From Cyanidioschyzon merolae (lineage: Eukaryota), in the NCBI GenBank assembly GCA_000091205.1, contig AP006498.2: DNA of 64,000 nt; one strand, 5' to 3'. Below, one piece after another: positions 1 through 64,000 of this stretch. Each line of letters starts with the position of its first letter. Within the stretch, counting starts at the first letter, position 1. The notes below the pieces were generated by a model. That model saw only the letters and a program-made list of their open reading frames with translations. It was not told where the DNA came from and made no database searches. Position numbers and translations under genes: made by a program.

Positions 1-19
1 CAGGACGTTCGGAACTCAT

Positions 20-9193: not shown

Positions 9194-9202
9194 ATTTGAT
9201 TT

Positions 9203-40432: not shown

Positions 40433-40902
40433 GGTCATGTTTTCAAGCACGTGCATCAACTCGCCGCCGCGGAAGGCTGCTCTATGGCGCGTTGACGCCT
40501 GCTTCATCGCTTGGTTCATGCTCTGGACGAGTGCAGAAGGCATCGCTTGATGCGCGCCCCCGTCTTGGTGCTCGGTGCAGTACCATACGAGCATCCGCCT
40601 CTTCTGGGCGATGCGCTCGGCGAGTACATTGTCCGTTGCACGCCCAAACGCAGGCGGCTCTATTGGATCGAGGATCTGTGAAACGTCAGCTTTTCCTTGA
40701 TGAACCTATTACCTTGCAGAGAATCGAGGCTCAAACACACGCCGAGAAATTTCGTTGCGTCTACACTCTCATCGGGCAAAACGGTGATACACGCCCCGCA
40801 GGAAGCGATCGCTGCGATGGCTCAAGTCCGAGTCCAAGAACCTGCTCGATCCCCAGAGAAGAGACGTGAGCCTCTGGGAGCAAATCCCATGTGAGAAATC
40901 AT
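40433..40902 (+). repeat. Dispersed repeat family A, copy 1 (at least 470 bp verified; probably extends upstream). Contains ORF fragments 40322..40594(-) and 40492..40869(+).
   Basis: It is ~99.5% identical to the reverse complement of 63531..64000. I saw about two substitutions over 470 bp, one of them S vs Y in the 125-aa ORF. The identity boundary is at gagaaatcat|gc (40902). Confidence 0.85.
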
Positions 40903-41789
40903 GCTGCTGCCGAATGCCATTCCATTTATATCCATACAGATATCATGACAGATAATCCAACGACTAGGTGTGAATCCGTAAGCCGTTGTTGCCGCTGCAC
41001 TTCGAATGTCAAGGCTCTAGACCTGAAATAAGGTTTGGAAAATCTCCATGCAGGAACAGAGCCAGCATCCCAGTGTTCCCTGTTTCGAGCACATTCTATC
41101 GTCGCCTTTGGAGTATTCCGCTCGACAAGTGCTGGTGCCTTGTGAGCGGGCGCTGCTCGCCGCATTGGACACAGACACGCCTAGCGTTGCTTGCTGACGT
41201 CACTGCTTCTGCTGCTGCAACTTGCGAACCGGGCAGCTGGAAGTACGCAAACTCGCCAACGACGAGAGGCGCTCTAGTGTTGGAAGCTCCGTGCACTGCA
41301 GAGCGCGATTGTCGCTTGCTACCCAGAACGCTTTTTCGGTAGCTGCGACGGCAGTAGCAGCAGCTGCTACTTCTGCCAAAAACCGCCGCCGGTTCGCAGC
41401 CACGCCATCGTTGCTGTGAACGGGTGTCGCTTTCGAGGTTGCTCGTGAAACTTGGGTACCGTTGGAAGGCGCGGGGTCTTTGGCATTGGACCTCACTGGA
41501 AGTGAAACGCGTTCTGGGTGTCGATTACCTAAAAACAAGAGGCCCGGAACCAGAGGCGTCCCTGCGTATCGGCTGTACGCGACGGACGTCCGATACCAGG
41601 TTTCAGCGCTTATACGTAGCGGACGGAGGGGACGCGTCTCAAAAGTCTTCAACTCGAAAGGAGCATAGTTTCGTTTCAAACAGAATTGGAAGAACAGCGC
41701 GCACATATTCTATCAGGTGTTAGGTTCTGTAGGTAGGTCTTGTCTGGCTGTTCCAGCAACAGACGATCGCTGGCATTCCGCTCGCGGAT

Positions 41790-44700
41790 ATGTACGCGGC
41801 GCTGCATCGAGTCACAGCAACGATTGAAGCTGTTGATCTTAGCCCGCTACACTTCGAAGCTCATGTGTCTAGCCCAGCTTCTATGAGTCGTAGAATGACT
41901 GCGTTGCTTCACTGGGGACCTTCTCCAGTGCTCTTTGCCTCTCCTTTTTACCAGGCTGGGGCTCGAAATCAGCGAGCAAACGCCACGAAAATCACTCGCT
42001 GGAGTATACGCTGTCGAAAATACGCTCGCTCTGAGGGCCTCGGTTTTCTAGCAATCACGCAACCAAAGACCAGCCTGGTACGAACGGCATCACACGCGGC
42101 TTACAACGCAAATCTATGGGCAGCAAGGAGATCCGGGCGAGTTTCTCCTCGAATGACGACAGGTTCTTCACCAGTGCTGTCGACTCGTCGTGCGGAACTT
42201 GTCTGCTCGCGCTACGTAGTCTTCTCTGATCTTCATGTCGATGCGAATCGGCTGGAGACGTGCTTGCAAGTTCTTGAGCGAGTTCATGAATTGGCCACTG
42301 CCAGAGATGCGGGCATCATATTTCTTGGCGATTTCTGGCATCTACGAGGAAGCATCCCAGTCATATGCCTCAATCGGGTCCTGGAGACGGTTCAGCAATT
42401 CACTGTACCATGCCTGATGCTTCCAGGTAATCACGACCAGGTAAGCATCTGCGGACGGGAACACGCGCTGGTCCCAGTGGCGGCAGCGATGCAGCCTGGT
42501 CTCGCGCTCGTGTTTGACGAACCTGTAGTGATGTTTGATGCGCTCTGGCTGCCGTATCGCAAGCGTCCGCTGCAACTAGTGGAAGCGCTGCGAGAACACG
42601 GACCCCATGTGAAAGCTGTCTTCTGTCATGCGGAGATTCAGGGCGCGTGGCTCAATAACCAGATGCGCTATGGAGGGCCCGGTGGTATCGCACCGGAGCT
42701 CTTCCCGCCTTCGCCAGTACCAACCTATGCGGGTCACTTTCATCGGCCCCATACGGTGACGGGCTATCCGCATATCCAGTATGTAGGCTCGCCCTATCAG
42801 GTCACGCGAGCTGAGGAAGGACAAGAGAAACATCTCCTTGTCGTGCGATCAACGGACTGGCTCACAGAGGAAATCGTGCCGCTAGCCATTGGACCTCGTT
42901 TCTTTCGCGTTTCATTGAAACAGGCTCGGCAACAACTAAGCGCTAGCATCCCTGCATCGGCGGCAGAAGCAACAACATCAGCGACAACGGGCTTTCGACC
43001 CGGTGATCGTGTTACGCTGCTCTGCACCGCATCCGAGCTGCAGCAACAGCGCACCGCCGGTGCCAAAGACATGGACCACGATTTGGAGTATGTCTATAAC
43101 GAACTACGTCGCAGAGGCATTCACGCAAGTATGCGCCTATGGGATGCACCAGCAGAAAATGAGAAAGTTTCATCGAGCAGCGCGCAACGCACCTTTGTTG
43201 AACCTCAGTTGCGAATGCCGAATGCGGAGCGCCTCGACGCTGCCGATGTGCTGCGCCTGTTTGCGCGCCAGCACCCGCAGCAGTTGGACGGAACGACGCT
43301 GGCGCTCGGACTTTCGATTTTAGAACAAATTCAAAAATCGAACGCAAAAATTGCTCGCGGGGAATCTTTTTCGCGCTTGCGTGCTGTGCATGTCCTCTTC
43401 GATTCTGTGCGACTCCATAATTTCGGCTGTTTCCATACTGAACCGGATAGCAACCAAGTAGATCAGCTGTCAATGGACGTAGCAGGGAGCACAAGGCATC
43501 AGATGAGCGTCACGAGTGCTTCGGAAGAATCGCACCAGGACCTCGAATCCAACGGTGGTGTCGTGAAGCGCGGGCGAGTGGCGGCGGCTACTGCTACGGC
43601 GGATGGAGCATGGCGTACGATCCCCGCGAAACCTGGTATCTGGTATCCGCTGCGCAATCGAGGGATCGTCCAAGTATCTGGACGCAATCTCGATGAAGAC
43701 GGTTGCAATTCGAATGGTACGGGAAAAACGACTTTGGCGATGGCAGCGCTATGGGCTCTAACAGGGAGCCTGGAACCGCGGCCTCATCTGCGACGTAACG
43801 TGTCGCAGTTGCGGATTCTGCACGAGGACGCTACGGAAGGTTTTGTTGAATTGCGAGCTAGCGTGAATGGAAAACCGCTTTTGGTGCGGAGGAAAGTTCG
43901 CCGCAGTGGGAAACAGCGGGAAAGATATAACCAGGAGCTTTTCGTGGAGTACGACTCCCGGGATCTCACACGCCTCAGCATCGAGGAAACACAACAGCGA
44001 CTGAATGAGATCATTGATCTCTCACTGTTGCCACATGTAGTCTTTTTTGGCCAGAATTATCTGCATGGCTTGCTCTCCACAACCGACAAGGAGTTTAAGG
44101 AGATTCTGGAGAGCGCCTTGCCGCTGCAAGTCTGGAACGAGGCCTATGCGCATGTCACTGCACGACAGCGAGCACTGCGTGAAGAACGCCAGCAACTTGC
44201 TCAAAAAATCCAGAGCTGTTCACAGGCGTTAGAGCGCGAGCGGGAACGAATCGAAGAGCTCGCTCGAACAGAGCGAGAAACAAGACTGCAACTCGATCTT
44301 CAAGAGCAGGAACTGAAGCAGAGTCTCGAGCAGTGGCAGCAAGGCGCAGCGGAAGCATCGGCCTCGGATACTATCGACAGCGGCAGCGACAACACGTCTC
44401 TCGAGGCGCTCCGCGAACGCATTCGTCACCTGAAAGCGAGCATCGATGCCGACGTGACCACTCTGGCGGAGCTGCAACGCAAGGAGGCGAAACTTCATGC
44501 GGAGCTTGCCCAGGCGCAGAGACTCTGGGATCAGTGGGCTGCGCTCCATGCGCAGCTCCAAGGCGATGCGGGAATAACCGTGTGCCAGGGCAGCCTCGAG
44601 CAACGCCGCACGGCTCTGCACGAACAAGTGAAAGACCTCAAACGAGTGTTGCAAGAGCTTCAGCTCCAGGAGCAGAGCACAGTTGCCAGCATACGCCACT

Positions 44701-46013
44701 TGGACCGGATGCTGCATTCGGAGCAACCTCCGGTGGCATCCAGCGCAGCAGATTGCGATGGAGCAGCAAAGCCGCAGCAAACACATTCGAAGACTTTCTG
44801 CGCCCTGTGTCTCCAACCAGTAGATGCTGCGTCGTATGCTGATCGTTTACAGGCCCTACAGACGGACCGCCAGCGTCTGGCAAGTGCGCTGGATGACCTC
44901 CGCGCACAGCGGCACGACAAGGACGCGGAAATCCAGATCATGGAGCGCGAACTCAGAGACACAGAAGCGGCATTCATGGAGCGGCATGCATTGGAGCAAC
45001 GCCTCGATGCAGTGGTGGCGTTGCGCCCCACACCCGAGCATTTGCATGAGCTTTCGCAAGCGAGCGATCGTTGCAGCATGGAGGCCGCACTTGTTATGCG
45101 CACGCTCGATACGAATCGCCAGCTTCTAGCCGAATATGAACAGCATCTGCTGCAGCAGCAAGAGCTGCGTTTGCACCAGGAACAACAGCGCGCGCGTTAC
45201 GACCGAGCCCTTCGAGCGTTGGACTGGACTCAACAGCAGCGACAGCGTCTACTCCAACCGATAGCTGCTGCGATCCTAGAGGCAACTGCGCACGTCGCGT
45301 CGCTACAGTCCACGTTAAACGAAGCGGTAGCGCATGAACGCACGCTTGTGGATACTGCGGATCGTCTGGAATTCCTTGCGCGCGCATTTCATCGCGGTGG
45401 CATACCGAGCCAGTTACTGGATCAGAGCCTGCAAGTCATCGAGACGCTTTGTGGTCATTACCTACGACATCTGAGCGATGATACGCTTTTACTGCGAATA
45501 CGTCGTCGCCGACAAGCGCAGCGTCCTCGGGAGCGGGAGCTTACCAAGGCTACCACGCGCGCAGAGAACGCACTCGAAGTACTTGTCTGGCAAGTCTACT
45601 GTCGAGACGCGCGCACAGGCACGTTCCGGGAACGAGAACTAGGCCTGCTCAGCGGCGGTCAGTTGCGACGAGTCAGTATTGCACTTTCCTTGGCCTTTGC
45701 CGAGTACATCTGTCATCAGCTGGGATATCGTAGTAATCTGCTGGTCTTGGACGAGGCTCTTCAACAGCTTGATCAAGAGGGTGCCCGTCGCTTAGCGTCA
45801 CTACTGCCGCAGCTGCAACGTGAGACGGTGCTGGTTATTGCCCACGAGAATGCCAGCTTTCTCGTGGACATCGCGGATGCGCATGATGTTGTGGAGCGTG
45901 CATCAGGGCGCAGCACGGTGCACTGTGATACCGGGTTTTTAGAGACAGAGCTCGCAGGCGACTCGTTTTCAGGGCGTTCAGAGCTCGTCCCGCAAGCGCA
46001 GGTCCGACGCTGA
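41790..46013 (+). CDS. Fused SbcD/Mre11-like metallophosphoesterase plus SbcC/Rad50-like ABC ATPase in one 1407-aa polypeptide, with a transit-peptide-like N-terminal ~140 aa. Candidate organelle-targeted SbcCD-type DNA repair nuclease.
   Basis: ATG at 41790. Phosphoesterase motifs I-V: 'VVFSDLHVD', 'IIFLGDFWH', 'LMLPGNHD', 'CHAEIQG' and 'AGHFHRPH'. Walker A: 'GRNLDEDGCNSNGTGKTTLAMAALWALTG'. Long heptad coiled-coil (~residues 770-1230) carrying a central 'FCALCLQP' CxxC zinc-hook-like motif. ABC signature 'LSGGQLRRVSIALSLAFAE', Walker B 'LLVLDEALQQLD' and H-loop 'VLVIAHEN'. No in-frame stop separates the nuclease and ATPase parts. Confidence 0.8.
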   Translation: MYAALHRVTATIEAVDLSPLHFEAHVSSPASMSRRMTALLHWGPSPVLFASPFYQAGARNQRANATKITRWSIRCRKYARSEGLGFLAITQPKTSLVRTASHAAYNANLWAARRSGRVSPRMTTGSSPVLSTRRAELVCSRYVVFSDLHVDANRLETCLQVLERVHELATARDAGIIFLGDFWHLRGSIPVICLNRVLETVQQFTVPCLMLPGNHDQVSICGREHALVPVAAAMQPGLALVFDEPVVMFDALWLPYRKRPLQLVEALREHGPHVKAVFCHAEIQGAWLNNQMRYGGPGGIAPELFPPSPVPTYAGHFHRPHTVTGYPHIQYVGSPYQVTRAEEGQEKHLLVVRSTDWLTEEIVPLAIGPRFFRVSLKQARQQLSASIPASAAEATTSATTGFRPGDRVTLLCTASELQQQRTAGAKDMDHDLEYVYNELRRRGIHASMRLWDAPAENEKVSSSSAQRTFVEPQLRMPNAERLDAADVLRLFARQHPQQLDGTTLALGLSILEQIQKSNAKIARGESFSRLRAVHVLFDSVRLHNFGCFHTEPDSNQVDQLSMDVAGSTRHQMSVTSASEESHQDLESNGGVVKRGRVAAATATADGAWRTIPAKPGIWYPLRNRGIVQVSGRNLDEDGCNSNGTGKTTLAMAALWALTGSLEPRPHLRRNVSQLRILHEDATEGFVELRASVNGKPLLVRRKVRRSGKQRERYNQELFVEYDSRDLTRLSIEETQQRLNEIIDLSLLPHVVFFGQNYLHGLLSTTDKEFKEILESALPLQVWNEAYAHVTARQRALREERQQLAQKIQSCSQALERERERIEELARTERETRLQLDLQEQELKQSLEQWQQGAAEASASDTIDSGSDNTSLEALRERIRHLKASIDADVTTLAELQRKEAKLHAELAQAQRLWDQWAALHAQLQGDAGITVCQGSLEQRRTALHEQVKDLKRVLQELQLQEQSTVASIRHLDRMLHSEQPPVASSAADCDGAAKPQQTHSKTFCALCLQPVDAASYADRLQALQTDRQRLASALDDLRAQRHDKDAEIQIMERELRDTEAAFMERHALEQRLDAVVALRPTPEHLHELSQASDRCSMEAALVMRTLDTNRQLLAEYEQHLLQQQELRLHQEQQRARYDRALRALDWTQQQRQRLLQPIAAAILEATAHVASLQSTLNEAVAHERTLVDTADRLEFLARAFHRGGIPSQLLDQSLQVIETLCGHYLRHLSDDTLLLRIRRRRQAQRPRERELTKATTRAENALEVLVWQVYCRDARTGTFRERELGLLSGGQLRRVSIALSLAFAEYICHQLGYRSNLLVLDEALQQLDQEGARRLASLLPQLQRETVLVIAHENASFLVDIADAHDVVERASGRSTVHCDTGFLETELAGDSFSGRSELVPQAQVRR

Positions 46014-48565: not shown

Positions 48566-49009
48566 ATGGCACGAAGTACTTCGGACCGTTCCGCACACAC
48601 AGCGGGAAGTGCAGCCTTCCCCAGCACGGTAACGTCGACACCCGCGTCCACCTCGACGTCGATGTCGTGGAGCGGGCACAGCAGCCAGGTCGCGAACCGA
48701 GCGGACCTGTCGGGTGTAGCGTATGCGGACTTGCTGGAGCAACAGAATCAGGATCGAATTCAGGCGCTTTCCGGCAAAGTGGGAGCTATGAAAGAGTTGG
48801 CTATCCAAATCAACGAGGAGGTTATCACCCAAAACCGTTTTCTGGACCAGGATCTCAGCGACTCGATGGGACGTACTGTGGAGCAACTGCGCAACTCAAT
48901 GCGAAAACTAGAACAACTGGTACGGTCTGGTAGTTCTTACGCACTCTGTTACGGGGTTCTGGGTATTGTTGGGGTTCTTTTTCTGTTACACTGGTTGTTT
49001 CCGCGCTGA
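48566..49009 (+). CDS. Bet1-like Qc-SNARE (ER-Golgi). The ORF track starts at 48515; the likely ATG is at 48566 (or 48662).
   Basis: S/T-rich N-terminus. SNARE heptad region 'QDRIQALSGKVGAMKELAIQINEEVITQNRFLDQDLSDSMGRTVEQLRNSMRKLEQLV' with the conserved Q-layer context. A C-terminal transmembrane anchor 'YALCYGVLGIVGVLFLLHWLF' lies 2 residues from the stop. Size (~115-148 aa) fits Bet1. Confidence 0.7.
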   Translation: MARSTSDRSAHTAGSAAFPSTVTSTPASTSTSMSWSGHSSQVANRADLSGVAYADLLEQQNQDRIQALSGKVGAMKELAIQINEEVITQNRFLDQDLSDSMGRTVEQLRNSMRKLEQLVRSGSSYALCYGVLGIVGVLFLLHWLFPR

Positions 49010-49240
49010 TTCCAAACGCATACTTGTGCACAGTCCAGGTGTTGCACTCAAGTCGTCAATGAAGCCGAGCATACGAGTCGTACAGCGCGCGAAGACACCT
49101 TGCCGCTGTCTACATGGCAGCTCGGGGTTCGCGGTCGCGAGCGGAAAAACAACAACAACAACAACATCGATCACGATGACGTCGAGAGGGTGTACCCCAG
49201 GTACGTGCTGCCGATGCCGGCAATGCGACCATTCGCCGCT

Positions 49241-52027: not shown

Positions 52028-52140
52028 CGGACCTTGTGTACTGAGAAACCAAAGCACGTTCTATAAACAGAGAATGTGTAGCAGTGTTTCGGCCGGTTCA
52101 GCGGAACGGACGCTCATCGCGCTGTCGCCGCTGTCGATTT

Positions 52141-52215
52141 CGCGGCGATGATGAAGATGGCAATGATGTTGATGATGATGGCAGTGATGATGGCAATGAT
52201 GATGTTAATGAACGA
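52141..52215. repeat. GAT-rich imperfect microsatellite (gatgatgg/gatgatga units, ~75 bp)
   Basis: Direct read 'gatgatgaagatggcaatgatgttgatgatgatggcagtgatgatggcaatgatgatgtt'. It generates spurious Ser/Leu/Pro-rich antisense ORF 52098..52358. Confidence 0.8.
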
Positions 52216-54168
52216 TGTCGCGCATGTGGATGCTGTGGATACTGTGGACGGATGCTCTGATTTACGCATATTCGAGCAAAATAGCTTTGGTTTGCTTTCG
52301 TAGCTCGGATGTACACGCGAAAGTTTGGGATGCCTCCAAGTACGATCAACATTACCATTTTTCGGGCATTTTCAAGGACGGATTCCCTCGCCTCTCATCT
52401 ATGTTTGACTTAAAAAACGCTCGTCTGATCTCTGCCTCTAGTTCCGTAATTAGCATTAGAAAGGTGCTGATGCCAGCGTCCTAGTCAAGAGTTTTGCGTA
52501 AGTTCGTTGACAACGCATTGGATGCACAAGCAGATGTTGCTACCTGCGCCTCGCTTGCTATTTTCATCTGGTTCGTGTAGAGCCTCGGTGCGTGAGTCGC
52601 AGGGGCGACACTTGCTTGCGCACTGGCGTTCCCCCATGCCTACCACAACTCATCCGTCTTCGAGAGCCGCACTGTGGAGCGAAAAAGGCTCGCTTCTTCG
52701 TTTGGTACATTCCCTTGATGGATGCAGAAGGCGCCGCTCCATACCTACTCTGTTTCCGCACCCGATGCTGTAGCGTACGATCACAAGCTTCGCGTGGGTG
52801 ATCCCATCTGCTAATACGTTATTCAATGCGTACGTAAGCGAACGCTGCTCCATTCGATAAAGGATTCGTGGAACGTGACCTTGCGCGTCATGGAACAATT
52901 ACAGAAGTACAATTCACCTTGCAGAACAAGTCAAGACGTTTCGACTGCCTGAGGCCCCCATCATGGAAAGCGGTAGTGAATTCTCAAACAGAACGGTTGA
53001 GTCGATGACTGAAGCTCGAGTCCGAAACGCCTTTTCCGTGCCAACAGAAAAGGCGGGAGCTTCTTGGTGCGCATCCCATTACCGGTTTCATGCTGCATTC
53101 GATTGTCGTATCGTCGTTAGCAACGAATCGAGGAAAATTCTGGTTCCGAACGGAATCCGTCATTGCTGAGCGTGAGAGGTTGGACGAACATGCGTGACAA
53201 GTGTAAGCGCAGGTTGGCAAGAAAAGATGTCGAGTATTTATTCTCATCAATCCATCGGCTGGACTTGTTGCGCCTATGATTTGCCTTGAAACAGAGAGAT
53301 CAAAAATCTAAAGAAAGCATCTTTTCAGGATGCTGCCCACAAGGAAACGAGAAGAAGGGACGCTCTTGCGCATAAATTGAATATTTATGTCGGTTAGAAC
53401 ACGGACCCTGGTTCGATGGCTTCGTGAATCACTGTGAATCTCGTGACGAAACGATCTCCAGCGGTAAAAAGTCGAAAAAGCCATCCCGAAAGGACTGCCC
53501 AGAATCTTTAATCTACGCTTGAATCCCTAAGCTGTCGTTGCTGCACCAGAAATGCCGACACTGCGCATCTACAAACAAGTTAGGCAATGTTCGAAAGGTA
53601 GGAACGTGTCCAGTATTTCAGGTGTCCGGTTTCAGTCATGCACAGGTGTGGCGCGTGCGCAAACGGTACCGAAATTGCGGGAAACCGCTCTCGAGCGTAT
53701 GAATGCGATCCAGTCATTTTCTGGTTGGCGTTCTACAGCACCAGATGAGCGGGTTCGGTGCATCATATTCTGCCTCTGCAAGACAGAGCGCACCTCTTCT
53801 TCAGCTCCCGTGACGTTGCAAAATCAACAGGTTCTGGAAGGTTTCAGAGCATAAAGTTTGAATCGGAAGCTCGTCGATCACGCCCTGGGGCACTTACGTG
53901 TAGGTATCCCATGGAATGGCCGTTCAAGGTTTCTTCGAAGCGTCAGCCGCGATCAGTGTGTGCAGAACGCGTTTACAAGGCAACGCAGGTGATTGATGGG
54001 AGCAGCACCTATTCATCTCCGCGCATACTCATTGGAAGAAGTGCATGGATGTGTACCCCAATGGCTCCATCTCGAGGCTATGTCTAACATGCCAAAACTG
54101 CTCATCCAACCGCCAGAATAAACTTGGGCATGATGGTGCGCCCTGGCACTGCATGCTGGAAGATAGAT

Positions 54169-55788
54169 TTATTCGAATAGTCTTTGGAGATATCGAGCAT
54201 GGAGTGTTGCCGGCATTTCGCCGAGCGCTGTCAATAATGCGCTGGTTATCACGGCCGGTACACCGATGCCCGGAAACGAATTCTCACCTGCCAGTGCAAG
54301 TCCAGCAGGTAAATCATGGCGAATCCAGGGAAGTAGCGGCTTGGCACCATAGGTGCCGCGGTAGCGCCGTAAATACTGCTCATGGGTCAACGGTGTCCCG
54401 ATGAGTTTCATTCGGATCGAGTCAGGGTCTGCACAGCCCGGCACTGCCCGAGCAATTGCATCCAGCAACACCTGACCTCTGGCAAGTTTCTGTGCTCGAT
54501 AGCGCTCGCGATCAAGGTTCTCCCAGAGCTCGTACGGCTCCGTTGCTGGCGTATACGCGTGGAGTGTATGCTCACCAGATCGCGAAAGCGACGGATCCAG
54601 CACTGATGGAATCGAAATGGCGACGACATTCTGAGGCTCCGTCAGCCTCTCCCAGTTATCCACAACAATATAGTGACAATTGTAGCCGTCGTGCTCTGGC
54701 GGCTGGCTGCCCCGAATGTAGTCGGTGAAATGTGTGGATGCGCTTTCCGGGTCCAGCGCCTTGAAGACCAAGTGCGCGTGTAGGAAGCTTGGAAGAGGCT
54801 CGGCATTGGCCTGGAAAGATCCATCCTGCAGCAAGCGCGCTGTGTCCCAGAGACTTATGCAGCTGACCACTCGACGCGATGCCTTGATTCGGCGACCGTC
54901 GACTAGCGTCACTCCGACGACTCGCTGTGAGGCGTTCTCTGTCCAAAATGACTGCACTGGCGAGCTCGTGTACACTTTGCCGCCGCGTTTCTCCAGAGCA
55001 TCCTTCAAGGCCTGCGCTAGCGCCGCAACACCTCCAAGGGGATACTCTAGGTAAGCATCCTCTCCGTAGAAGGAACGGAACATGAAGGCCATTTCGGCAG
55101 TCGGCGTTCCATCAGAGGGTAATCCACTCAACAAAAAACACAGCAGGTCCATCCAGCCGCGCAGAAATGCGTCCCGAACACCAACTTGATCCAGCACTCG
55201 TGAAAATGGTGCAGACATGAGCCGGAAATGTGCTGCATGACGCAAGGCGCGCGGCAGATGAGGTGTCACCGTTCGCCAGATACCCAGGTCTCGTCGAAGT
55301 GCAACAGGTGGGATACTTACAGCCGCCTCCGCGAGCGGTTTCATAAAACGCTGTAGTTCAGCAAACTGTGCGGCGGCGTCTCGACCGCGAAGCTCTCGTA
55401 GCGTATGGCTGAAGTCTTTCGCACCGACTGCTGAGTTGAAGCGACCCTCGGGGACTAGGACGCCCCAGGTGTTGTAGCGCGCCACCGGGAGCTTGATCCC
55501 CAAGAGGCGCAGCAACTGAGCTAGTGGATCGGAGGAGTCTCGCCCGCTTAAAGATCCTCCAGCAAAGAGCGATGGCCCCGTATCGAAGTAATAGGGACCT
55601 TTCGAGAAACCGTGTGCAGCGCCGCCAACGCGCTCATGGGCCTCTAAGAGACACACTGAGTGACCCTGGTCCGCGAGTAGCGCACCCGTTGCAAGTCCCG
55701 CCAGGCCACCGCCTACGATGACATAGTCAGCCCATTGAAACGCCCAGACACCACCATTTCGACGTCGTACCCGTTGTGCGCGTTGCAT
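54169..55788 (-). CDS. FAD-dependent oxidoreductase of the CrtI / phytoene-desaturase superfamily, most similar in architecture to carotenoid isomerase (CRTISO)
   Basis: ATG at 55788. N-terminal dinucleotide-binding fold 'DYVIVGGGLAGLATGALLADQGHSVCLLEAHERVGGAAHGF'. Internal blocks 'SIPSVLDPSLSRSGEHTLHAYT', 'GTPLTHEQYLRRYRGTYGA' and C-terminal 'LAGENSFPGIGVPAVITSAL' parallel Arabidopsis CRTISO ('[22 protein letters not shown]', 'GTPRTHRRFLARDKGTYGP', '[20 protein letters not shown]'). Confidence 0.78.
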   Translation of the reverse strand: MQRAQRVRRRNGGVWAFQWADYVIVGGGLAGLATGALLADQGHSVCLLEAHERVGGAAHGFSKGPYYFDTGPSLFAGGSLSGRDSSDPLAQLLRLLGIKLPVARYNTWGVLVPEGRFNSAVGAKDFSHTLRELRGRDAAAQFAELQRFMKPLAEAAVSIPPVALRRDLGIWRTVTPHLPRALRHAAHFRLMSAPFSRVLDQVGVRDAFLRGWMDLLCFLLSGLPSDGTPTAEMAFMFRSFYGEDAYLEYPLGGVAALAQALKDALEKRGGKVYTSSPVQSFWTENASQRVVGVTLVDGRRIKASRRVVSCISLWDTARLLQDGSFQANAEPLPSFLHAHLVFKALDPESASTHFTDYIRGSQPPEHDGYNCHYIVVDNWERLTEPQNVVAISIPSVLDPSLSRSGEHTLHAYTPATEPYELWENLDRERYRAQKLARGQVLLDAIARAVPGCADPDSIRMKLIGTPLTHEQYLRRYRGTYGAKPLLPWIRHDLPAGLALAGENSFPGIGVPAVITSALLTALGEMPATLHARYLQRLFE

Positions 55789-56162
55789 GGAGTCCGTTCA
55801 CACCCAGCGCTGGGTAGCTTAAGTCAACGAAGATTTGAATCACCTTTGCTGCGTGTATTCGAATGCTTATTCACAATGTACAGCTGGACGTTGAGATCAT
55901 GATGGTATGCACTGTATCGATCATCGACGAATTGCCGCTAGGATGTATTCTCTGGTAAATAGTGAAAGGAGGTCTACATTCTGCTTCGGGTCAGGCATAC
56001 AATAGTACTCAGATGGTTGAGTAACACAGAAAGAATCACGTAGATACGCTCCGTGCCGAAAACCGATTTGCTCGAAGCGCGCCTGCGGTTAATGGTATAA
56101 AAATGATCCGTTCATCATATTACGGAAAGCAAAAGCAACGATCCTAGCAACTACCAGTGTCT

Positions 56163-57200
56163 CTATTTCTCAATAGCTTGTTCGCGTTGTCCTGAAAACA
56201 CTGGTATACAATCGCATAAAAAGTCCTGGTTCACAAACGGCAATCTTCCGCCGAAATCTCAACGACAGCGTCCTTGGAAAGTCAATATCGATATGAAGCA
56301 CAGAGACGACGATTTGTTTTTTCAGTTAATGAGAGCTTCTTCAGACGAAACGGCCGGAGTGCGGATGGGTAGTCGCGGAGCGTGGCGTCCGTTGTATGCG
56401 CTATCGAACTCTTAGAGAACGAGTATATCATCATCGGTCTAGCTGTAGTGGAATCATTTAGCGGCCTCCAATTCGCGTATACAGAAGGCTCATACAACAG
56501 CGTTGACTTCGTCGAATCAATAAAGGTGTTGTCTCTGACGTCTGGCCACGACCTTCTACTAGACAACGTGGTAGTTCACATTTCCCCTTGCGTCGAGCTT
56601 TTGACGATTCTAATTAGGTAGAGCTGCTTTTGACTCCTCCGTTCTCTCCGCGTTTCAACTGCATCGCAGGAATGTCTTCTATCGTGAAACGAAATGATCG
56701 CTCTAGTGGGCCAATCGATGATGCGTTCAGCACACAGTGAAACACCCGGGCACATGACGTTGTTCTTCCGCCAGTCCTTCATCCTCCGGGAAGGTCCTCG
56801 CTTAAGGGTATCAAGCAGCGCGTTCATTTTTTGAAGAAACTAAAAATCCCAGGGATGAGCTGGGGTTTACTCATCAGAAGATCGAGATGGAGAAAAGCCA
56901 GCGAAGCGCTCCGGCGATAGAAGAGCACGGGGAGCTGATCGAGCAGCAAATGGCACAGACGGCACAAGTTCGAGGACTACTTGCATTGGTGGGTTCAACA
57001 ACGGCAAGAAACGCATGGAGTTTGTGAACCGAGACTTTAACGCCGCTATCGATATCAGGAGATGTGCGGTGCTGGAGACGAGACCTCCAGAATAGACAAG
57101 AGTGAACTTTGTTGGACAGCCTCCAAAAATTGAACTATATGAGAAATAATTGGAACCAGTAGCTCGTGGCCGGTCGAAAATGGCTGGGAGGCGTCTGCAC
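56163..57200 (+). repeat. Dispersed repeat family B, copy 2 (~1.0 kb; relative to copy 1 it has an internal deletion or divergence)
   Basis: See copy 1 (23147..24270). It shares the terminal blocks (tctcaatagcttgttcg ... ggccggtcgaaaatggctgggaggcgtctgca) and internal conserved blocks (gcaagaaacgcatggagtttgtgaaccgagactt). Same orientation as copy 1. Confidence 0.6.
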
Positions 57201-57302
57201 ATCAGCTGGAGACGCTGTGTCTAGGGCGCGGTTTCTCGCCAATACTGTGCACGGCCAACGGCGACGTTCGACTTCTGAGGCGAGTTTGGTAGTGGTGGTA
57301 TT

Positions 57303-59099
57303 ATGTGGTGTTTCGTGACTGGACGGTGTGCTCCACTTTGGGGGGTTAACACAAACAGCACTTCGGTGACAGCTCGGTCTCGATGGAGGACGGCTGTCTG
57401 CGGCGGCCAGCAGCAGAGGTGCACAAGACGCACAAAGCTGGCATCGAGGCGTCCCTGCCGGGCTAGCGCTAGTGACCCGAACTTCTGGCGAGACGTGGCG
57501 CGCTCAGTGTCCGAGCAGGGCGAGCTGGCGACTTCGCGAGCTCCTGTGCGTCGAGAGCGACCTCCTCCGCAATGGGTGGCGCCGCCGCCCGGCTTTGAAC
57601 TCGATACGAGCGGCGAAAGCAGTTCGACTTGGGCTTCATGGCGCGCGGCGGCAGAGGCAGCGCAAGCCGAGCAAGAGGCGGTGCAAGAGCGGCTTGAGCG
57701 TGGCGAACCTGTGCGTGATATGACCGCTGAACGAAACTTCTGGCGGAGCGCAGCGGCTGAACTAGGCGCACCGTTGGACCCCGGCAGAACGGCAGCCGAG
57801 CTACGCACTGCAGCAGGCGGGTTGGCGGAGCGTCCTTCGGAGCATAATCGCAGCGAAGAGATTGGGAGCATCGATTCGAACATTCCTGAATCGGATGAGG
57901 AGTGGGACCCCGACACCTCCTGGATGCAAATGTATGCGTCAGACGCTGTTGAATTCGTTTCGGGAACCGAATCTGCTGATGATAATCTTCAAGGGACACT
58001 TTGGGGCGCCGCTCTGGGATCCGAGCAAGCAGCACGCGAACGTTCATCCACATCCTTGCAGTCGTTATCCGCAGAATGGGACACGAAGGAGCGCATTCCT
58101 GATTCCGGGGCAGAAGCTGCAGACGAGGAGGAAACCTTGGAGCCGCGCGATCCGAAGAAGGAGACAGCATTCTGGCGGGGTGCGGCCCAGGAGCTGCTTG
58201 GGGCATCCACGGGAGCTACGTCGGATGCGTTCGCGACTCGCTCGACCACGTCGCACAGCGCAGACGGGAGTGCCACGCAGGACTCCGAAGAGGAAACCTG
58301 GGAGCCGCGCGATCCGAAGAAGGAGACAGCATTCTGGCGGGGTGCGGCCCAGGAGCTGCTTGGGGCATCCACGGGAGCTACGTCGGATGCGTTCGCGACT
58401 CGCTCGACCACGTCGCACAGCGCAGACGGGAGTGCCACGCAGGACTCCGAAGAGGAAACCTGGGAGCCGCGCGATCCGAAGAAGGAGACAGCATTCTGGC
58501 GGGGTGCGGCCCAGGAGCTGCTTGGGGCATCCACGGGAGCTACGTCGGATGCGTTCGCGACTCGCTCGACCACGTCGCACAGCGCAGACGGGAGTGCCAC
58601 GCAGGACTCCGAAGAGGAAACCTGGGAGCCGCGCGATCCGAAGAAGGAGACAGCATTCTGGCGGGGTGCGGCTCAAGACATCATCGAGAGCCTTCCGACA
58701 CAAATCGAACTCGGTGTGGATGCACAGTCAAGCGCCAGCACTCCCGCCGTTCCCGATGCGCATGCCGGAACTGGTGATCCCGACGTTACAGCCGAAGAGC
58801 CCGTAGGCCCAGCTGAAGCCTGGGCTGCCTGGCGTGCCGCCCGAGCTTCTTCTAAGAACGTGTCCGCTTTACCCGCTCCTGTGGCTGAGACGCACCCAGA
58901 ACCTCTTTCTGAAACAGAGATCTGGATTCAGTGGCGAGAACAGCAAAGAAAAACCTGGGCAGGAGCCCTCAACGACCTGAACCGTAACCGTCCGCGAGAA
59001 CAGCAAGTTGCGCGACCCGAGAAAAGCACCGTTGATCGCTGGCGCCATGTTGCCGCAGAACTATCACAAGACAGCCCACAAAGCGAGGAGAACTCATAA
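57303..59099 (+). CDS. Repeat-containing acidic protein with about ten degenerate 'xxFWRxAAxEL' motifs, including three perfect 54-aa tandem repeats
   Basis: ATG at 57303. The protein is 598 aa. Recurring motifs: DPNFWRDVARSV, ERNFWRSAAAELG, ETAFWRGAAQELLGAS (x3) and ETAFWRGAAQDII, plus W-containing variants (EAWAAWRAARAS, TEIWIQWREQQRK, VDRWRHVAAELS). Three-plus units of 'EETWEPRDPKKETAFWRGAAQELLGASTGATSDAFATRSTTSHSADGSATQDSE'. Confidence 0.6.
   Translation: MWCFVTGRCAPLWGVNTNSTSVTARSRWRTAVCGGQQQRCTRRTKLASRRPCRASASDPNFWRDVARSVSEQGELATSRAPVRRERPPPQWVAPPPGFELDTSGESSSTWASWRAAAEAAQAEQEAVQERLERGEPVRDMTAERNFWRSAAAELGAPLDPGRTAAELRTAAGGLAERPSEHNRSEEIGSIDSNIPESDEEWDPDTSWMQMYASDAVEFVSGTESADDNLQGTLWGAALGSEQAARERSSTSLQSLSAEWDTKERIPDSGAEAADEEETLEPRDPKKETAFWRGAAQELLGASTGATSDAFATRSTTSHSADGSATQDSEEETWEPRDPKKETAFWRGAAQELLGASTGATSDAFATRSTTSHSADGSATQDSEEETWEPRDPKKETAFWRGAAQELLGASTGATSDAFATRSTTSHSADGSATQDSEEETWEPRDPKKETAFWRGAAQDIIESLPTQIELGVDAQSSASTPAVPDAHAGTGDPDVTAEEPVGPAEAWAAWRAARASSKNVSALPAPVAETHPEPLSETEIWIQWREQQRKTWAGALNDLNRNRPREQQVARPEKSTVDRWRHVAAELSQDSPQSEENS
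58139..58680. repeat. Perfect 162-bp tandem repeat, ~3.3 units, inside the repeat-protein CDS
   Basis: Unit starts (ggagccgcgcgatccgaag...) at 58139, 58301, 58463 and 58625, with exactly 162-bp spacing. The units looked identical by eye. Confidence 0.9.
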
Positions 59100-59417
59100 G
59101 CAACTTGCAACTGGGAATCTTTACGTATCGAGGCCGCTGAACAAGTCCTACCGAGGGCATCCATCCCTCACGAGCAGCGCTGTGCGGATCACGCACTCCC
59201 CGCGATCACGCATGGCACGCATCGAGGGCTGCCCGCATCGCCACTGCCGCGCGTGCTGCGTGTTGCACCGAACGCGCATGGCACGTCGTTTCCGTGCGTA
59301 GCCGGGCGCTGTGAACTCCAATGTCCATGATTGCCTCTGATGATTACGATCTTCAGATAAGGATGCGTGTTGGCCGCCATCGGAGGCATTCGACTCCCGT
59401 GGAAAGACCAGAATTTT

Positions 59418-62400
59418 TTAGCTCCACTGTGAGAAACGTTCCAGCGCTTCGGTTAACTGCGCGATTTCCTGCTCATAGCGATTCAGGTTTTGCACGGTGC
59501 GCTCTCGAACGGATTCCGGTACGCGTTCATCATAGTTTTGAAGTTGTTCCCTAAAACGCTGTGCGCTTCGCTCAGCTTCAGCGAGCTTCGCCTGCGCTTT
59601 CGCCTTTTCGACTTGCACATCAACAAGACCGGCAAGATGCAGGTAAATACAGATCTGGGGAGTGACCAACTGCACACCGCATTGTTTCACTTCGGACGGC
59701 GGGTCTGCTTGCACGTTAACAGTGCCACAGAGCGCCAGCGTCCGTACAAGTGGAGCGCAGACCGCATCACCGCCGACAATCCATACCTGCGGGCGAGCAG
59801 TCTTCTTCACTTGGTACAGAGTCCGAAGCGAACGGATGCCGCGAACAATGAGCATCGCCTGCTGGACGAGCTCCTCAGCGGCCTCGTCGCGGGAGCCGCC
59901 TTCCGGATACGACGCAGTCATGATCGAGGGCGCTCTTTTCGGTAAAGGCAGACGCTGGTACAGTTCCTCGGTAACGAATGGCATCATGGGGTGCAGGAGG
60001 CGAAGGCCCTGGTCGAGACACTCCAGCAGTACTCGGCGCGCCACCGAGGCGTCACTGGTTGCCGTCGCATCCGCGGGCGCATCCTCGGCGCCGTACACTC
60101 GCGGCTTGATTGCTTCTAGATACACGTCACACAGTTCGTAGAGCCAGAAATGATGCAGTGCCTGAACTGCTTCAGCAAACTCGTAGCTGGAGAGCGCTTG
60201 ATGGCATTGCATTGCACAGTGCGCAAGACGCGAGAGAATCCATCGATCCTCGAGTGCTAGCGCGGCATCCTTGTAGACAAGTGCTTCCGCTCCGCTGTCA
60301 TCGGAGGCATTCGGCAGTTGTCGATGCGCAGGCTGGCCGGCCATGTCCTTGTCCGCGACATGTAACAGGCCGAGGGCAAATCGCACGGCATTCCATAGCT
60401 TGTTGCAGAAATGACGATACGCAACAACTCGTGCAACATCAAGGTTGATATCGCGGCCTTGCAACGTATACGCAAGCAGTCCAAATCGAAGCGCGTCCGT
60501 TCCACACTCGGGTATTCCCTGTTCACCGTACTCAAGCCGCTGCATCTTGCGCGCCTTCTCGACCTCGCGTGGATCCAGATTTCCACTGAGTAACTTTGCG
60601 TGCAGCTGCTCCAGCGTAGCGCCCTCGATGACCTCAAGCGGGTCGATAACATTTCCCAACGATTTCGACATTTTGCGGCCGTACTTGTCCCGTACAAGGG
60701 CGTGCAGGTAAACTGTAGAAAAGGGTAGCTTACCAGTGAGCTCTAAGCCCAGCATCACCATTCGCGCCACCCAGAAAAACAGGATATCGTGACCGGTCTC
60801 CAGAAGCGTCGTCGGGTAAAACGCGTGCATTTCCCTGTTGACAGGTGAGGTATCCGGCCAACCGAATACCGAGAACGGAAACAATCCCGATGAGAACCAG
60901 GTATCGAGGACGTCCTCGTCCTGCTCTAGCGACTCCCGATAGGCAGGTGGAGCTCTCTGACGAGCCTCTTCGACGTTACGCGCAACAATCCACTCCTCGG
61001 CACCAGTGTCAACGTTTGTATACCGCCAAGCGGGAATACGATGGCCCCACCATAGTTGGCGCGAAACACACCAGTCATGGATGTTTTCCAACCAGCGATT
61101 CCAAGTAGCGCGGTGGAATTCCGGCAGGATTGTGAGCTGTCCCTCGTCGGCAGCTCGAACCGCTTCGCGTGCCATGTGGTCGCATTTCACCCACCACTGC
61201 GGTTTGAGCATCGGCTCGATAATGTCGTGTGTACGTGAACAGAGCGCGAGTCGCATAGCGTGGCTCTCTTTTCCGCGCAGATACCCTCGTTCAGCGAGCG
61301 CCCGCTCGACCTGAACGCGGGCCTCATAGCGCATCAGGCCAGAAAACGCTCCAGCGTGCTCGTTGAGGTGACCTTCGTCATCAAAAATAACGATGAACGG
61401 TAATCCGTGGCGCAGACCGCACTCGTAATCGTTCGGATCATGCGCTGGAGTGACCTTCACACATCCAGTTCCGAAGCTCATATCCACGAGCTGTGCGTCC
61501 GCAATGACCCGCAGCTCGCGATCGGGAAGAAACGGATGCACCAGCTGGGCGCCAACGAGGTCTCGGTATCGTGGATCCTCCGGATGAACGGCAACGGCAA
61601 CGTCGCCCAACATGGTCTCCAGTCGAGTGGTGGCTACCACCAGCTCATGGATACCGCCCGGTACAGGTTCCTTCAACGGGTACGCAAACCGGGTCAAGAC
61701 CCCTACCTCTACCTCGCCATCATGGCCGGGCACTCGCAGCAGCTCTCGGCCCGGAATATCCACGTATTCTACTTCGATATCACTGAGCGCTGTTCGCAGT
61801 CGGCAGCACCAGTTCACAAGTCGGGTTCCTCGGTAGATGAGACCACGCTCGTACAGACGAACAAACGCCTCCACTACAGCCTTTGACAATTGTTCGTTCA
61901 TGGTGAACTGTTCACGGCTCCAGTCGACTGAGACGCCTAAGCGACGGAGCTGATCGCAGATCCGGCCTCCGTATTCCTCTTTGTAGGCCCAGACGTAGCG
62001 CACAAAGTCGTCGCGCCCCAGATCGTGTCGGGTCAGGTTGCGCTCTCGCATGAGTTTTCTTTCGACAACTGTTTGAGTGGCAATACCAGCATGGTCTGTT
62101 CCCGGAACCCAAAGCGCAACGTGGCCTCTCATTCGATGCCAGCGGGTCAAGCAATCCTGGATCGCACACATCAGGGTGTGCCCCAGGTGCAGTGTTCCAG
62201 TGACATTTGGCGGAGGCATGACCATGACGAAGCGTCTGCTAGGGTCTGGCTCGGAAAGCGCTTGCTCCGTCTGCGCGGTAAAGAATCCTTGTGCTTCCCA
62301 CCAGTCGTACCAGGCGGCCTCTACGGATCGCGGGTAATATGCCGGGGACATGGGTTTCTTGAGAAGCGTTTTGTAGGCGCCCTTTGGTGTATGGTCGATG

Positions 62401-62714
62401 TATTCGGGTGGCAACTGCTTCGATGAAGAGCCAGTATCATCATTGTCGTTGGTGGTACTCGCTGAACTCTTGTTTGCTCGCGCCCCAGTTGCCGCCTGAG
62501 TCGCACTCGCAGCGCCCAGGTTCGCTTCAGCAATCACTGAGCGTGCTTGTGCTTTCAACGCTTTCTGCTCGGCTTTTTCTAACAGTTTCGCCAGCTTCTT
62601 CTGTTTCGCCTTGGGGAGTAGTGCCCGTTCCTCAGCAGTCATCGCTCTATACTGCTCTAGCGTGACATCTTGGCCAGTGGCAGCGGCGCTCTCTCCGGTC
62701 GCGTCGAGCGTCAT
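59418..62714 (-). CDS. VARS: Valyl-tRNA synthetase (class I aaRS) with a lysine-rich N-terminal extension
   Basis: ATG at 62714. HIGH region 'PPPNVTGTLHLGHTLMCAIQD', 'KMSKSLGN', the editing and anticodon-binding regions typical of ValRS ('GTGCVKVTPAHDPNDYECGLRHGLPFIVIFDDEG'), and a C-terminal coiled-coil. 1098 aa. Confidence 0.95.
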   Translation of the reverse strand: MTLDATGESAAATGQDVTLEQYRAMTAEERALLPKAKQKKLAKLLEKAEQKALKAQARSVIAEANLGAASATQAATGARANKSSASTTNDNDDTGSSSKQLPPEYIDHTPKGAYKTLLKKPMSPAYYPRSVEAAWYDWWEAQGFFTAQTEQALSEPDPSRRFVMVMPPPNVTGTLHLGHTLMCAIQDCLTRWHRMRGHVALWVPGTDHAGIATQTVVERKLMRERNLTRHDLGRDDFVRYVWAYKEEYGGRICDQLRRLGVSVDWSREQFTMNEQLSKAVVEAFVRLYERGLIYRGTRLVNWCCRLRTALSDIEVEYVDIPGRELLRVPGHDGEVEVGVLTRFAYPLKEPVPGGIHELVVATTRLETMLGDVAVAVHPEDPRYRDLVGAQLVHPFLPDRELRVIADAQLVDMSFGTGCVKVTPAHDPNDYECGLRHGLPFIVIFDDEGHLNEHAGAFSGLMRYEARVQVERALAERGYLRGKESHAMRLALCSRTHDIIEPMLKPQWWVKCDHMAREAVRAADEGQLTILPEFHRATWNRWLENIHDWCVSRQLWWGHRIPAWRYTNVDTGAEEWIVARNVEEARQRAPPAYRESLEQDEDVLDTWFSSGLFPFSVFGWPDTSPVNREMHAFYPTTLLETGHDILFFWVARMVMLGLELTGKLPFSTVYLHALVRDKYGRKMSKSLGNVIDPLEVIEGATLEQLHAKLLSGNLDPREVEKARKMQRLEYGEQGIPECGTDALRFGLLAYTLQGRDINLDVARVVAYRHFCNKLWNAVRFALGLLHVADKDMAGQPAHRQLPNASDDSGAEALVYKDAALALEDRWILSRLAHCAMQCHQALSSYEFAEAVQALHHFWLYELCDVYLEAIKPRVYGAEDAPADATATSDASVARRVLLECLDQGLRLLHPMMPFVTEELYQRLPLPKRAPSIMTASYPEGGSRDEAAEELVQQAMLIVRGIRSLRTLYQVKKTARPQVWIVGGDAVCAPLVRTLALCGTVNVQADPPSEVKQCGVQLVTPQICIYLHLAGLVDVQVEKAKAQAKLAEAERSAQRFREQLQNYDERVPESVRERTVQNLNRYEQEIAQLTEALERFSQWS

Positions 62715-63530
62715 GCGCAGTTTTCCGCTATTGAAACCCCGGAGTACGCTTTAGACGAAACAGGCTTGAGAAATTGAGTTTCCACTCGCAATGCGTACAG
62801 CGCAGTCCAGATCAGGCTTTCCTACTGGGCAGCTGCCTGGCACTATACATGCAGCAGGAAGCTATGCCAAAAACGTTCTATGAGGCTACTTTCCGCGCTG
62901 GCGCGGTGTCGAGGCGGTGTCCAGCTGTCCGTAATATTCCTAGTTGTACTGTTTTCATCGGAGCCGCTGCTTGGCCTGAGCCACGCTAATGTCAGAAAAA
63001 TCGTACACCGACTATTCACTATGTTCCTAACTTTCATATTTTCCAGCTTTTTCGGAGTTGAAGACTATCAACATTCCAAGTGCAGCATCCAAGACTTGCC
63101 CACTCAAGCGTCGTTTCGGGTTTTCGGTCGTCTTTTCCGAGTGGTTGCCTCGAAGCTTCGCCGCTAGTATTCAAGACAACACCGGAATCAAGTTGATCCG
63201 CCATGCCCACGGTCAAGGTTTCTTAGAATTACAGGACCCATAACCCAATATATACATGCATGCTTCCAATTCTCTCCTTTTCTAACGTGCAGCATGCTCA
63301 AAGCACGCGTTCTCCGAGTTTTCGATCTTTCTTTCTCAAGTTGAACGGTGAAGACACCAACTCGTGTCGCTTGATGTATAAGCGAAATGAATCGACATTG
63401 TCCCTTGACGCTCTGTTCACAAGCACATCCAAAAAGTTAATTCAAATTATTTTCTCAAACAATCAATTCCGTTCGAAAGAAACATCCTTCTTCCGACGTG
63501 GGTATCGACGTAATCGCATTCCACAAAAGT

Positions 63531-64000
63531 ATGATTTCTCACATGGGATTTGCTCCCAGAGGCTCACGTCTCTTCTCTGGGGATCGAGCAGGTTCTTGGA
63601 CTCGGACTTGAGCCATCGCAGCGATCGCTTCCTGCGGGGCGTGTATCACCGTTTTGCCCGATGAGAGTGTAGACGCAACGAAATTTCTCGGCGTGTGTTT
63701 GAGCCTCGATTCTCTGCAAGGTAATAGGTTCATCAAGGAAAAGCTGACGTTTCACATATCCTCGATCCAATAGAGCCGCCTGCGTTTGGGCGTGCAACGG
63801 ACAATGTACTCGCCGAGCGCATCGCCCAGAAGAGGCGGATGCTCGTATGGTACTGCACCGAGCACCAAGACGGGGGCGCGCATCAAGCGATGCCTTCTGC
63901 ACTCGTCCAGAGCATGAACCAAGCGATGAAGCAGGCGTCAACGCGCCATAGAGCAGCCTTCCGCGGCGGCGAGTTGATGCACGTGCTTGAAAACATGACC
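63531..64000 (-). repeat. Dispersed repeat family A, copy 2, inverted relative to copy 1 and truncated by the window end
   Basis: The reverse complement is ~99.5% identical to 40433..40902. It contains the same 125-aa and 65-aa ORFs (63564..63941 and 63539..63736). Confidence 0.85.

Follow-up and report, generated by a model that had tools for sequence, protein, structure and literature searches.

How do two stretches of DNA lying in opposite orientation on either side of 22.6 kb of housekeeping genes come to be nearly identical? The question is raised by a 64,000-nucleotide (nt) stretch of contig AP006498.2 (assembly GCA_000091205.1) of the alga Cyanidioschyzon merolae strain 10D, referred to here as the window, and was first put by a reading made from its letters without database searches (hereafter, the sequence-only reading), which offered a young transposon, a multi-copy gene, a subtelomere-like duplicated block or ongoing gene conversion as possible answers. 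The window lies on chromosome 16, as given by the locus tags of exactly matching 10D proteins (five long open reading frames (ORFs) so matched, including 14320-17022, corresponding to CMP325C, and the ValRS, corresponding to BAM81928), and the genes named as lying between the two arms, namely, the SbcCD-like gene, RPN1, the phytoene-dehydrogenase/CRTISO-like gene and ValRS, were confirmed. As argued below, it is likely that the two arms, here termed copies A and B, are old, dead relics derived from a Fanzor1 element that owe their near-identity to ectopic gene conversion among themselves and a further copy, E, found beyond the right edge of the window.

A repeat scan of the whole window returned one inverted pair, 40433-40934 and 63499-64000 (502 nt, 98%), where the number of such repeats expected by chance in 64 kb is effectively zero. 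When compared base by base, 40433-40902 and the reverse complement of 63531-64000 differ at 1 position in 470 nt (99.8%), meaning that the sequence-only reading was right in describing a real and very similar inverted repeat but, with some two mismatches and ~99.5% identity, understated the similarity. The identity collapses at 40903/63530, with 11 mismatches in the next 32 nt and no alignment thereafter. The right arm indeed runs off the window, and its continuation was sought in hot-spring (Yellowstone) metagenome contigs that are 98.5-99.5% identical to the window, the corresponding populations having been described as C. merolae 10D-like (PMC11662350). L027, part of a 57.7-kb Yellowstone contig, is collinear with window positions 53404-64000 and extends 10 kb beyond the right edge (window position = L027 position + 53889); all statements made here on sequence beyond position 64000 rest on these Yellowstone relatives. 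In this manner, the tract shared by A and B was extended to 764 bp, with 8 differences in 764 positions between 10D A and Yellowstone B, while B and E have 41 nt of further 3' sequence in common, beyond what either shares with A. The elements of the pair are as follows:

40139..40902, minus strand: full near-identical A/B tract, 764 nt, as read from the Yellowstone ortholog of B
40433..40902, minus strand: left arm, copy A as visible in the window, 470 nt, with one mismatch to the right arm
63531..64000, plus strand: right arm, copy B, truncated at the edge of the window; in L027 it reaches window-equivalent position 64294, followed by 41 nt common only with E
40676, no strand: the one position of the window at which the two arms differ, with C in A and A in reverse-complemented B

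That the pair reflects a collapse or misjoin in the source assembly is excluded, because the junctions of both copies recur in independent assemblies from several samples. The 5' (SbcCD-side) junction of A is reproduced by L035 and its 3' (NHP2) side by L034, the inner (ValRS-side) junction of B by L005, L007, L016, L023 and L036, and the outer junction of B by L027. Moreover, the 23-kb contig L036 ends ~338 nt inside each arm, as a true inverted repeat predicts. Nothing was found in support of an artefact, to which we assign a practically nil probability, the contact of the right arm with the window edge being uninformative by itself and the 10D sequence having been described as finished, telomere-to-telomere (PMC1955436).

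Comparisons using blastn, nhmmer and MAFFT, with all five copies aligned, revealed a family of five members within ~78 kb, four in the window (in the order C, A, D, B) and one, E, beyond its right edge. Another ~60 kb of flanking sequence, when examined, yielded no sixth copy. All five are oriented like the gene downstream of each. C and D are about 60-67% identical to A in the core and about 60-65% identical to the other members, and a mutual divergence of ~35-45% is seen when C and D are compared to each other, to the flank of A and to the 5' half of B. E is found at the PAXNEB/GH77 locus, ~12.5 kb past the right end of the window, and shares with B both the 57.7-kb contig and the orientation. 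A and E share 1,533 bp (41671-40139) at ~99% identity, a tract without the ~370-nt block that is present in B, C and D (indel at 40933/40926). Loci A, B and E were the only ones to yield near-identical copies. The remaining family segments in the window are these:

9438..10953, plus strand: copy C, old diverged member, ~60-67% identical to A in the core
52096..53658, minus strand: copy D, old diverged member, kept orthologously in Yellowstone contig L036
40139..41671, minus strand: tract of A ~99% identical to E, 1533 nt, without the ~370-nt block of B, C and D
62974..63530, plus strand: 5' half of copy B, of the old type, with ~55-62% identity to C and D and with the ~370-nt block kept

Some 200 nt upstream of copy C, at 9198-9257 on the minus strand, an Rfam tRNA match was obtained (40.3 bits, gathering score 29, model positions 7-64 of 71). 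This sequence was not called by ARAGORN and possibly represents a tRNA gene that is truncated or unusual.

Alignment of the five copies showed A, B and E to be ~100% identical over the core, as compared to 50-70% with C and D, the transitions between the two levels being abrupt. At the boundary in B, the identity profile jumps from ~40-60% to ~100% at one alignment column, with the near-identical tract thus being embedded in homology of lower identity, as seen on the 5' side of B and in the 3' flank of A. The 5' half of B (62974-63530) is of the old type, matching D and C with nhmmer E-values of 5e-31 and 2e-25, respectively, whereas the same search gave no match to the 5' part of A. B is, furthermore, collinear with C and D across the boundary and into the core to within a few bases, and the A/B identity starts exactly at the ~370-nt indel, the block having been kept in B and being gone from A and E. 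At the other end, the flank of A left of 40139 is still ~60% like the corresponding sequence of B and E. Strain comparison of this same end revealed a segment that is closer to its paralogs than to its own ortholog:

40139..40230, minus strand: last 92 nt of the tract in A, a strain-variable conversion-tract end, identical to Yellowstone E at 92/92, to Yellowstone B at 90/92 and to Yellowstone A at 64/112 positions

In this comparison of 10D A with its Yellowstone ortholog (L034, L001), a 20-nt indel is also seen. The Yellowstone A allele contains an old-type sequence of 112 nt, the 20-nt block of which is shared with C and D, such that the tract end at A varies by strain, falling at 40139 in 10D and at 40226 in Yellowstone.

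Of the answers offered by the sequence-only reading, ongoing gene conversion is the one favored by this evidence. As a mechanism, A, B and E would exchange sequence by ectopic (non-allelic) homologous recombination, with stretches of one relic being overwritten by another to yield near-identical tracts. Such tracts would stop where homology breaks, which for B would be at the ~370-nt indel, and the inverted orientation would be merely how relics A and B happen to sit. Efficient homologous recombination and gene conversion with introduced DNA have been described in C. merolae (PMC3764038). Gene conversion is favored over new insertion because of the old-type 5' half of B, the homologous flank of A, the strain-variable tract end and the restriction of the young copies to three loci.

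The alternative of recent transposition, in which A and E would be young insertions of a mobile, non-autonomous 1.5-kb element and B a 5'-truncated copy that landed in or beside an old one, was weighed against the same observations and is considered unlikely, if still worth keeping in mind. The family is transposon-derived, copies ~99% identical occupy different genomic contexts, and the B locus has gained DNA. Specifically, in the sister species GCA_041825655.1, the ValRS of which is 77% identical, ValRS and the gene that follows it (PSII_Pbs31-like) are separated by a spacer of 1.6 kb (L029 5204-6839), as compared to ~4.0 kb in C. merolae (window 62715 to L027 12817), where the extra DNA includes copy B. 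In the sister species, no family copy was detectable at the syntenic sites and no spacer similarity was seen, a result that is uninformative on the age of the copies. In the same region, a radical-SAM-like ORF and a Fanzor relic are found between the PSII_Pbs31-like and NusB/RsmB genes only in the merolae lineage, both being missing from the sister contig.

Against transposition, inspection of the tract ends revealed neither terminal inverted repeats nor target-site duplications nor poly-A, and neither shared termini nor target-site duplications were seen at the ends of homology. Indeed, tract ends differ for every pair considered (41671, 40902, 40139 and 40139-41, as well as 40226 in Yellowstone A), and the same locus shows different ends in two strains. 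B remains collinear with C and D through the boundary, the flank of A continues past the tract as homologous sequence at the old level, and the young copies are confined to three loci within ~38 kb. The young transposon suggested by the sequence-only reading is not supported, coding capacity also not having been found, and the near-identical copies recovered occupy three neighboring loci, each inside an old diverged copy.

Several candidate signatures of insertion were also considered. A 24-nt inverted pair of 83% identity (40077-40100 and 41566-41589) brackets most of copy A, although one arm lies outside the young tract. An estimated ~0.01 such pairs would be expected here by chance. The pair was, however, not found at B or E, and the 15-mer of its left arm was found only in the A-locus contig L034, such that it is probably a coincidence. 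A similar 24-nt, 75% inverted pair in C is at chance level, again by estimate. A processed-retrocopy origin of the ~370-nt gap in A and E was rejected, given that no GT..AG boundaries are found in B, C or D, as was LINE-like (long interspersed nuclear element-like) 5' truncation, since 3' ends differ too and poly-A is absent.

Other observations weigh against gene conversion. Conversion between partners only ~60% identical outside the tracts is normally inefficient, such that the model needs either continuous homogenization since the time when the copies were alike or initiation inside the homogenized core. The 5' 580 nt of A and E (41671-41090) have no detectable counterpart in C or D and are only weakly matched upstream of B (E-values 0.012-0.026). 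Because this segment is not clearly embedded in old homology, A and E could, judging from the alignments, be a plain 1.5-kb duplication. Likewise, E and a complete B have been seen in the Yellowstone relatives only and not in 10D itself, and the sharing of haplotypes between loci of metagenome contigs could reflect chimeric assembly. More young copies may also exist elsewhere in the 10D genome, the searches having covered the window and its flanks. Even so, gene conversion among old relics is, in our view, the likely source of the near-identity.

The nature of the relics emerged from the peptide encoded in both arms, for which the sequence-only reading could name no family. Pfam returned nothing useful for this peptide and the ORFs of the unit (dsrm, E-value 0.13; a TAT-signal-like match to a 168-aa ORF, E-value 0.097), while a word-indexed search of 5.8 G proteins recovered only the peptide's own cluster. 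The profile search was the productive one. When conducted exhaustively with the aligned translations of A, C and D, it matched 79 representative proteins, most of which are short, decayed ORFs from hot-spring metagenomes and a few of which are intact (roughly 700-860 aa). One intact metagenomic relative, P0290 (692 aa), carries GLDPGRVNL, VWEHYTTQKCHRCE and RNRDFNAAINI, which we take to be the three RuvC motifs of TnpB/Fanzor. P0290 matched Pfam PF07282 (Cas12f1-like TNB) with an E-value of 7e-5 and a score of 23.4 bits, below the 26.3 cut-off, and gave a weak Cas12 match in PADLOC. When P0290 and its profile were compared by sequence to the PDB, nothing was found, and only a fold search gave matches. 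For this, an AlphaFold model was generated from a 15-sequence alignment (predicted local distance difference test score (pLDDT) 68; predicted template modeling score (pTM) 0.56) and submitted to Foldseek. The best match was to the Spizellomyces Fanzor SpuFz (E-values 6e-10 to 2e-9, probability 1.00, template modeling (TM) score 0.43-0.50), followed by PpFz and GtFz, with the Fanzor range reaching an E-value of 2e-6, and then Cas12f.

The peptide aligns with residues 462-537 of P0290 (37% over 79 aa, E-value 3e-9), and tblastn detected this same segment, and no other, in A, B, E and C (E-values ~1e-8 to 1e-12) and, weakly, in D (1e-4). A consensus of 71 decayed fragments is, moreover, 65% identical to P0290 over 82 aligned residues, corresponding to about 456-537. 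In the copies in the window, only the RuvC-II neighborhood is detectable (HVLENMTEVMCHRRKEC as compared to NVWEHYTTQKCHRCEH). RuvC-I and RuvC-III segments were not found in these copies by tblastn, even at an E-value of 5, and the zinc-finger CxxC is broken (CHRRKEC). The remnants map as follows:

40415..40651, minus strand: degenerate Fanzor (RuvC-II region) remnant in A, core of the peptide noted earlier, P0290 462-537, 37% over 79 aa
63782..64000, plus strand: Fanzor remnant in B (tblastn)
10147..10471, plus strand: Fanzor remnant in C, two pieces flanking a frame change (tblastn)
52596..52865, minus strand: Fanzor remnant in D, weak (tblastn E-value 1e-4)

Each copy thus keeps a roughly 80-100-aa remnant of a Fanzor RuvC domain and nothing more. 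On the strength of the profile matches and the predicted fold of P0290, the A-E family is assigned as dead copies of a Fanzor1 (TnpB-like) element, relics rather than active members, because no RuvC-I or RuvC-III segment was found and frames are broken by stops. The peptide can, as such, be assigned as a degenerate Fanzor/TnpB-like RuvC fragment and not a gene product, and the two arms carry, as the sequence-only reading had seen, the same fragments.

Two observations on database entries related to this family were also made. Gene 5569-7224 of L038 (JGI 3300035702, Ga0399894_004485) encodes a Fanzor that is intact and belongs to the lineage of the window relics. This 7.8-kb contig (55.7% guanine plus cytosine) is virus-like in look, the neighbors of the gene being RNA ligase, 2H phosphoesterase and Peptidase_S74, and hints at Fanzor exchange between the alga and a hot-spring virus. 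Separately, in P0001, P0124 and P0126, JGI gene calls on locus A contigs, the TGA at 40322-40324 is read as tryptophan (…HGKRWRSLNQ…). Genetic code 4 was evidently used here by the metagenome pipeline, although the contigs are eukaryotic, and the family 'proteins' found in databases are gene-caller artefacts.

Whether A and B could instead be ordinary paralogous protein-coding genes, or copies of a multi-copy orphan gene with an intron, was addressed by considering coding potential. In favor of such a reading, A, B and E each contain an ORF of ~119 codons, C and D keep the homologous frame uninterrupted for ~75 codons, and the orientation of all five copies matches that of their downstream genes. 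By contrast, the mismatches that separate A, C and D lack codon periodicity, and the ratio of non-synonymous to synonymous divergence (dN/dS) is ~0.8-1.2 in the single frame open in A, C and D, that is, close to 1, with no purifying selection indicated. Upstream, the frame is interrupted by TGA, TAA and TAG, and no start codon is common to the copies. The peptide corresponds to a mere portion of a 692-aa nuclease, lacking the RuvC-I and RuvC-III motifs, and found no match in the annotated 10D proteome. The AG/GTAATAG sequence taken by the sequence-only reading to resemble a splice donor site is, in fact, the in-frame TAA TAG stop pair of the decayed frame, and bridging it would need an intron of only 23 nt. 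Introns occur in ~0.5% of C. merolae genes (PMC1955436). Paralogous functional genes are, therefore, not indicated, and we regard this explanation as having scarcely any likelihood. Nor do the copies seem to be structured as RNA, with fold z-scores of the cores of +0.9, 0.05 and -0.07 and no RNA family being reported at the repeats by Rfam or ARAGORN. The repeat has no demonstrated function. Of the proposed multi-copy, transposon-like unit, the multi-copy and transposon-derived character holds, whereas neither a functional multi-copy gene nor a subtelomere-like duplicated block is indicated.

The sequence-only reading had further proposed that the arms can mediate inversion of the intervening 22.6 kb. 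This is possible in principle, as 764 bp of inverted sequence at ~99.8% identity offer ample homology in a recombination-proficient organism (PMC3764038), and the A/B pair is a potential substrate for inverting the segment from the SbcCD-like gene through ValRS. No inverted junction was, however, seen, with only the reference orientation appearing in L027, L036, L001 and L034. The 57.7-kb and 23-kb (L036) Yellowstone contigs are collinear with 10D, L001 and L034 present the standard junctions at A, and, on the ValRS side, gene order is conserved in the sister species. One Logan contig, L025 (SRR29605742), runs from the 5' flank of E through the 1.45-kb unit into an old-type 3' tail specific to Yellowstone A. 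This junction may, judging from its sequence, be either the product of an A x E crossover (corresponding to an inversion of roughly 35 kb) or a chimeric assembly, L025 being a short-read contig through a 1.45-kb repeat. With no hint of a regulatory consequence, a functional or polymorphic invertible segment is deemed very improbable. Near the left arm, L032 (1-246) and L033 (1-479) follow the window to 39307 and then continue into unrelated, mutually different AT-rich sequences, whereas L034 reads straight through this position. L032 and L033 are probably chimeric contigs, or possibly reflect a structural variant between NHP2 and copy A.

Tandem repeats were also encountered elsewhere in the window. 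At 58124-58678, inside ORF 57303-59099, a protein-coding gene contains a tandem repeat of 162 bp with 98-100% identity, the copy number of which varies between strains, because Yellowstone L027 is without ~420 nt there relative to 10D. At 27165-27599, four 87-bp tandem units (detected as overlapping 174-nt copies, 68-79% identical) overlap ORFs 25920-27260 (minus strand) and 26919-27674 (plus strand).

The repeat described here is ordinary in kind and matters little for biology at large, consisting of dead Fanzor-type copies homogenized by recombination. What is modestly new is a name for an 'orphan' peptide, a strain-polymorphic conversion tract and the finding of intact relatives on a virus-like contig. 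The strain difference at A offers direct evidence for non-allelic gene conversion after the Yellowstone population and the Italian reference strain had diverged, in a genome famed for its simplicity, while the peptide links a decayed repeat family of the alga to intact Fanzor genes on hot-spring virus-like contigs. In practical terms, the 764-bp inverted pair calls for caution when short reads are assembled and when genes are targeted near the CMP genes of chromosome 16.

Elements of related type have been described in this genome. The CMe-1A Fanzor1 element of C. merolae is present in ~150 copies of ~3 kb that are ~80% identical to their consensus, with no terminal inverted repeats and with target-site duplications undetermined (Bao and Jurka, 2013; PMC3627910). 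Likewise, an interspersed element present in 253 copies was reported, the truncated ORF of which is similar to WSV486 from white spot syndrome virus (PMC1955436), and this virus carries a Fanzor1 (PMC3627910). The Repbase families in question for C. merolae are CMe-1A and TE-N2_CMe, and CMe-1A was compared here by its published description only. The A-E family resembles the CMe-1A and WSV486-like elements in occurring in the same genome as interspersed, old and diverged copies without terminal inverted repeats, in bearing a truncated Fanzor/TnpB-related ORF and in the abundance of decayed copies, with 71 distinct fragments counted in the protein set. Unlike CMe-1A, the A-E copies are ~1.5 kb and contain one roughly 80-100-aa Fanzor segment. 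They also show no nucleotide similarity to the relics in the window that do resemble CMe-1A, at 4-2095, ~22900-24300 and ~55900-57300.

These latter relics form a second, better-preserved Fanzor-type repeat (4-2095, minus strand; ~22900-24300 and ~55900-57300, plus strand; L027 16350-18900), the copies of which are ~75-77% identical to one another. Their ORFs contain the motifs GADSGNTNIITIA, VDEFRTSYTHHELGC and KKRMEFVNRDF(S/N)AAI and are collinear with the P0290 family by hhalign (E-values 0.0016 and 0.026), while Pfam returned nothing for this repeat. By its sequence, it would fit the published CMe-1A and the 253-copy WSV486-like element. A Tc1/mariner-like character, assigned by eye to the relics at ~23 kb and 56 kb, received no support from Pfam, and these are better explained as Fanzor relics.

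When considered next to the Fanzor nucleases (SpuFz, PDB 8GKH/9CEU; PpFz; GtFz), eukaryotic RNA-guided TnpB-like enzymes, the intact P0290 family presents RuvC-I, RuvC-II and RuvC-III motifs and a predicted Fanzor fold, whereas the window copies are dead fragments in which RuvC-I and RuvC-III are undetectable and the zinc finger is disrupted. In work from 2023 by Meers and colleagues, TnpB and IscB reportedly promote transposon retention through guide-RNA-directed breaks and homologous repair. The relics derive from the same nuclease superfamily and, as a conjecture, such breaks could drive conversion between them; unlike the TnpB/IscB case, the 10D proteome yielded no active Fanzor belonging to this lineage. 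By analogy, an active Fanzor, whether another genomic copy or one from a hot-spring virus, would cut at or near the relics by guide RNA, with repair from neighboring relics following. We consider this improbable, yet if true, strain-specific conversion tracts would be expected, all including the 3' part of the element.

Finally, dispersed repeats are known to evolve in concert through ectopic gene conversion, as with yeast Ty elements, primate Alu and L1 sequences and segmental duplications. The present case differs from those of Ty and Alu/L1 in that the partners are ~60% diverged outside the tracts and that only three neighboring members of a large family are concerned. Like them, it presents near-identical tracts set in older homology, tract ends at heterologies and a paralog that is closer than the ortholog.

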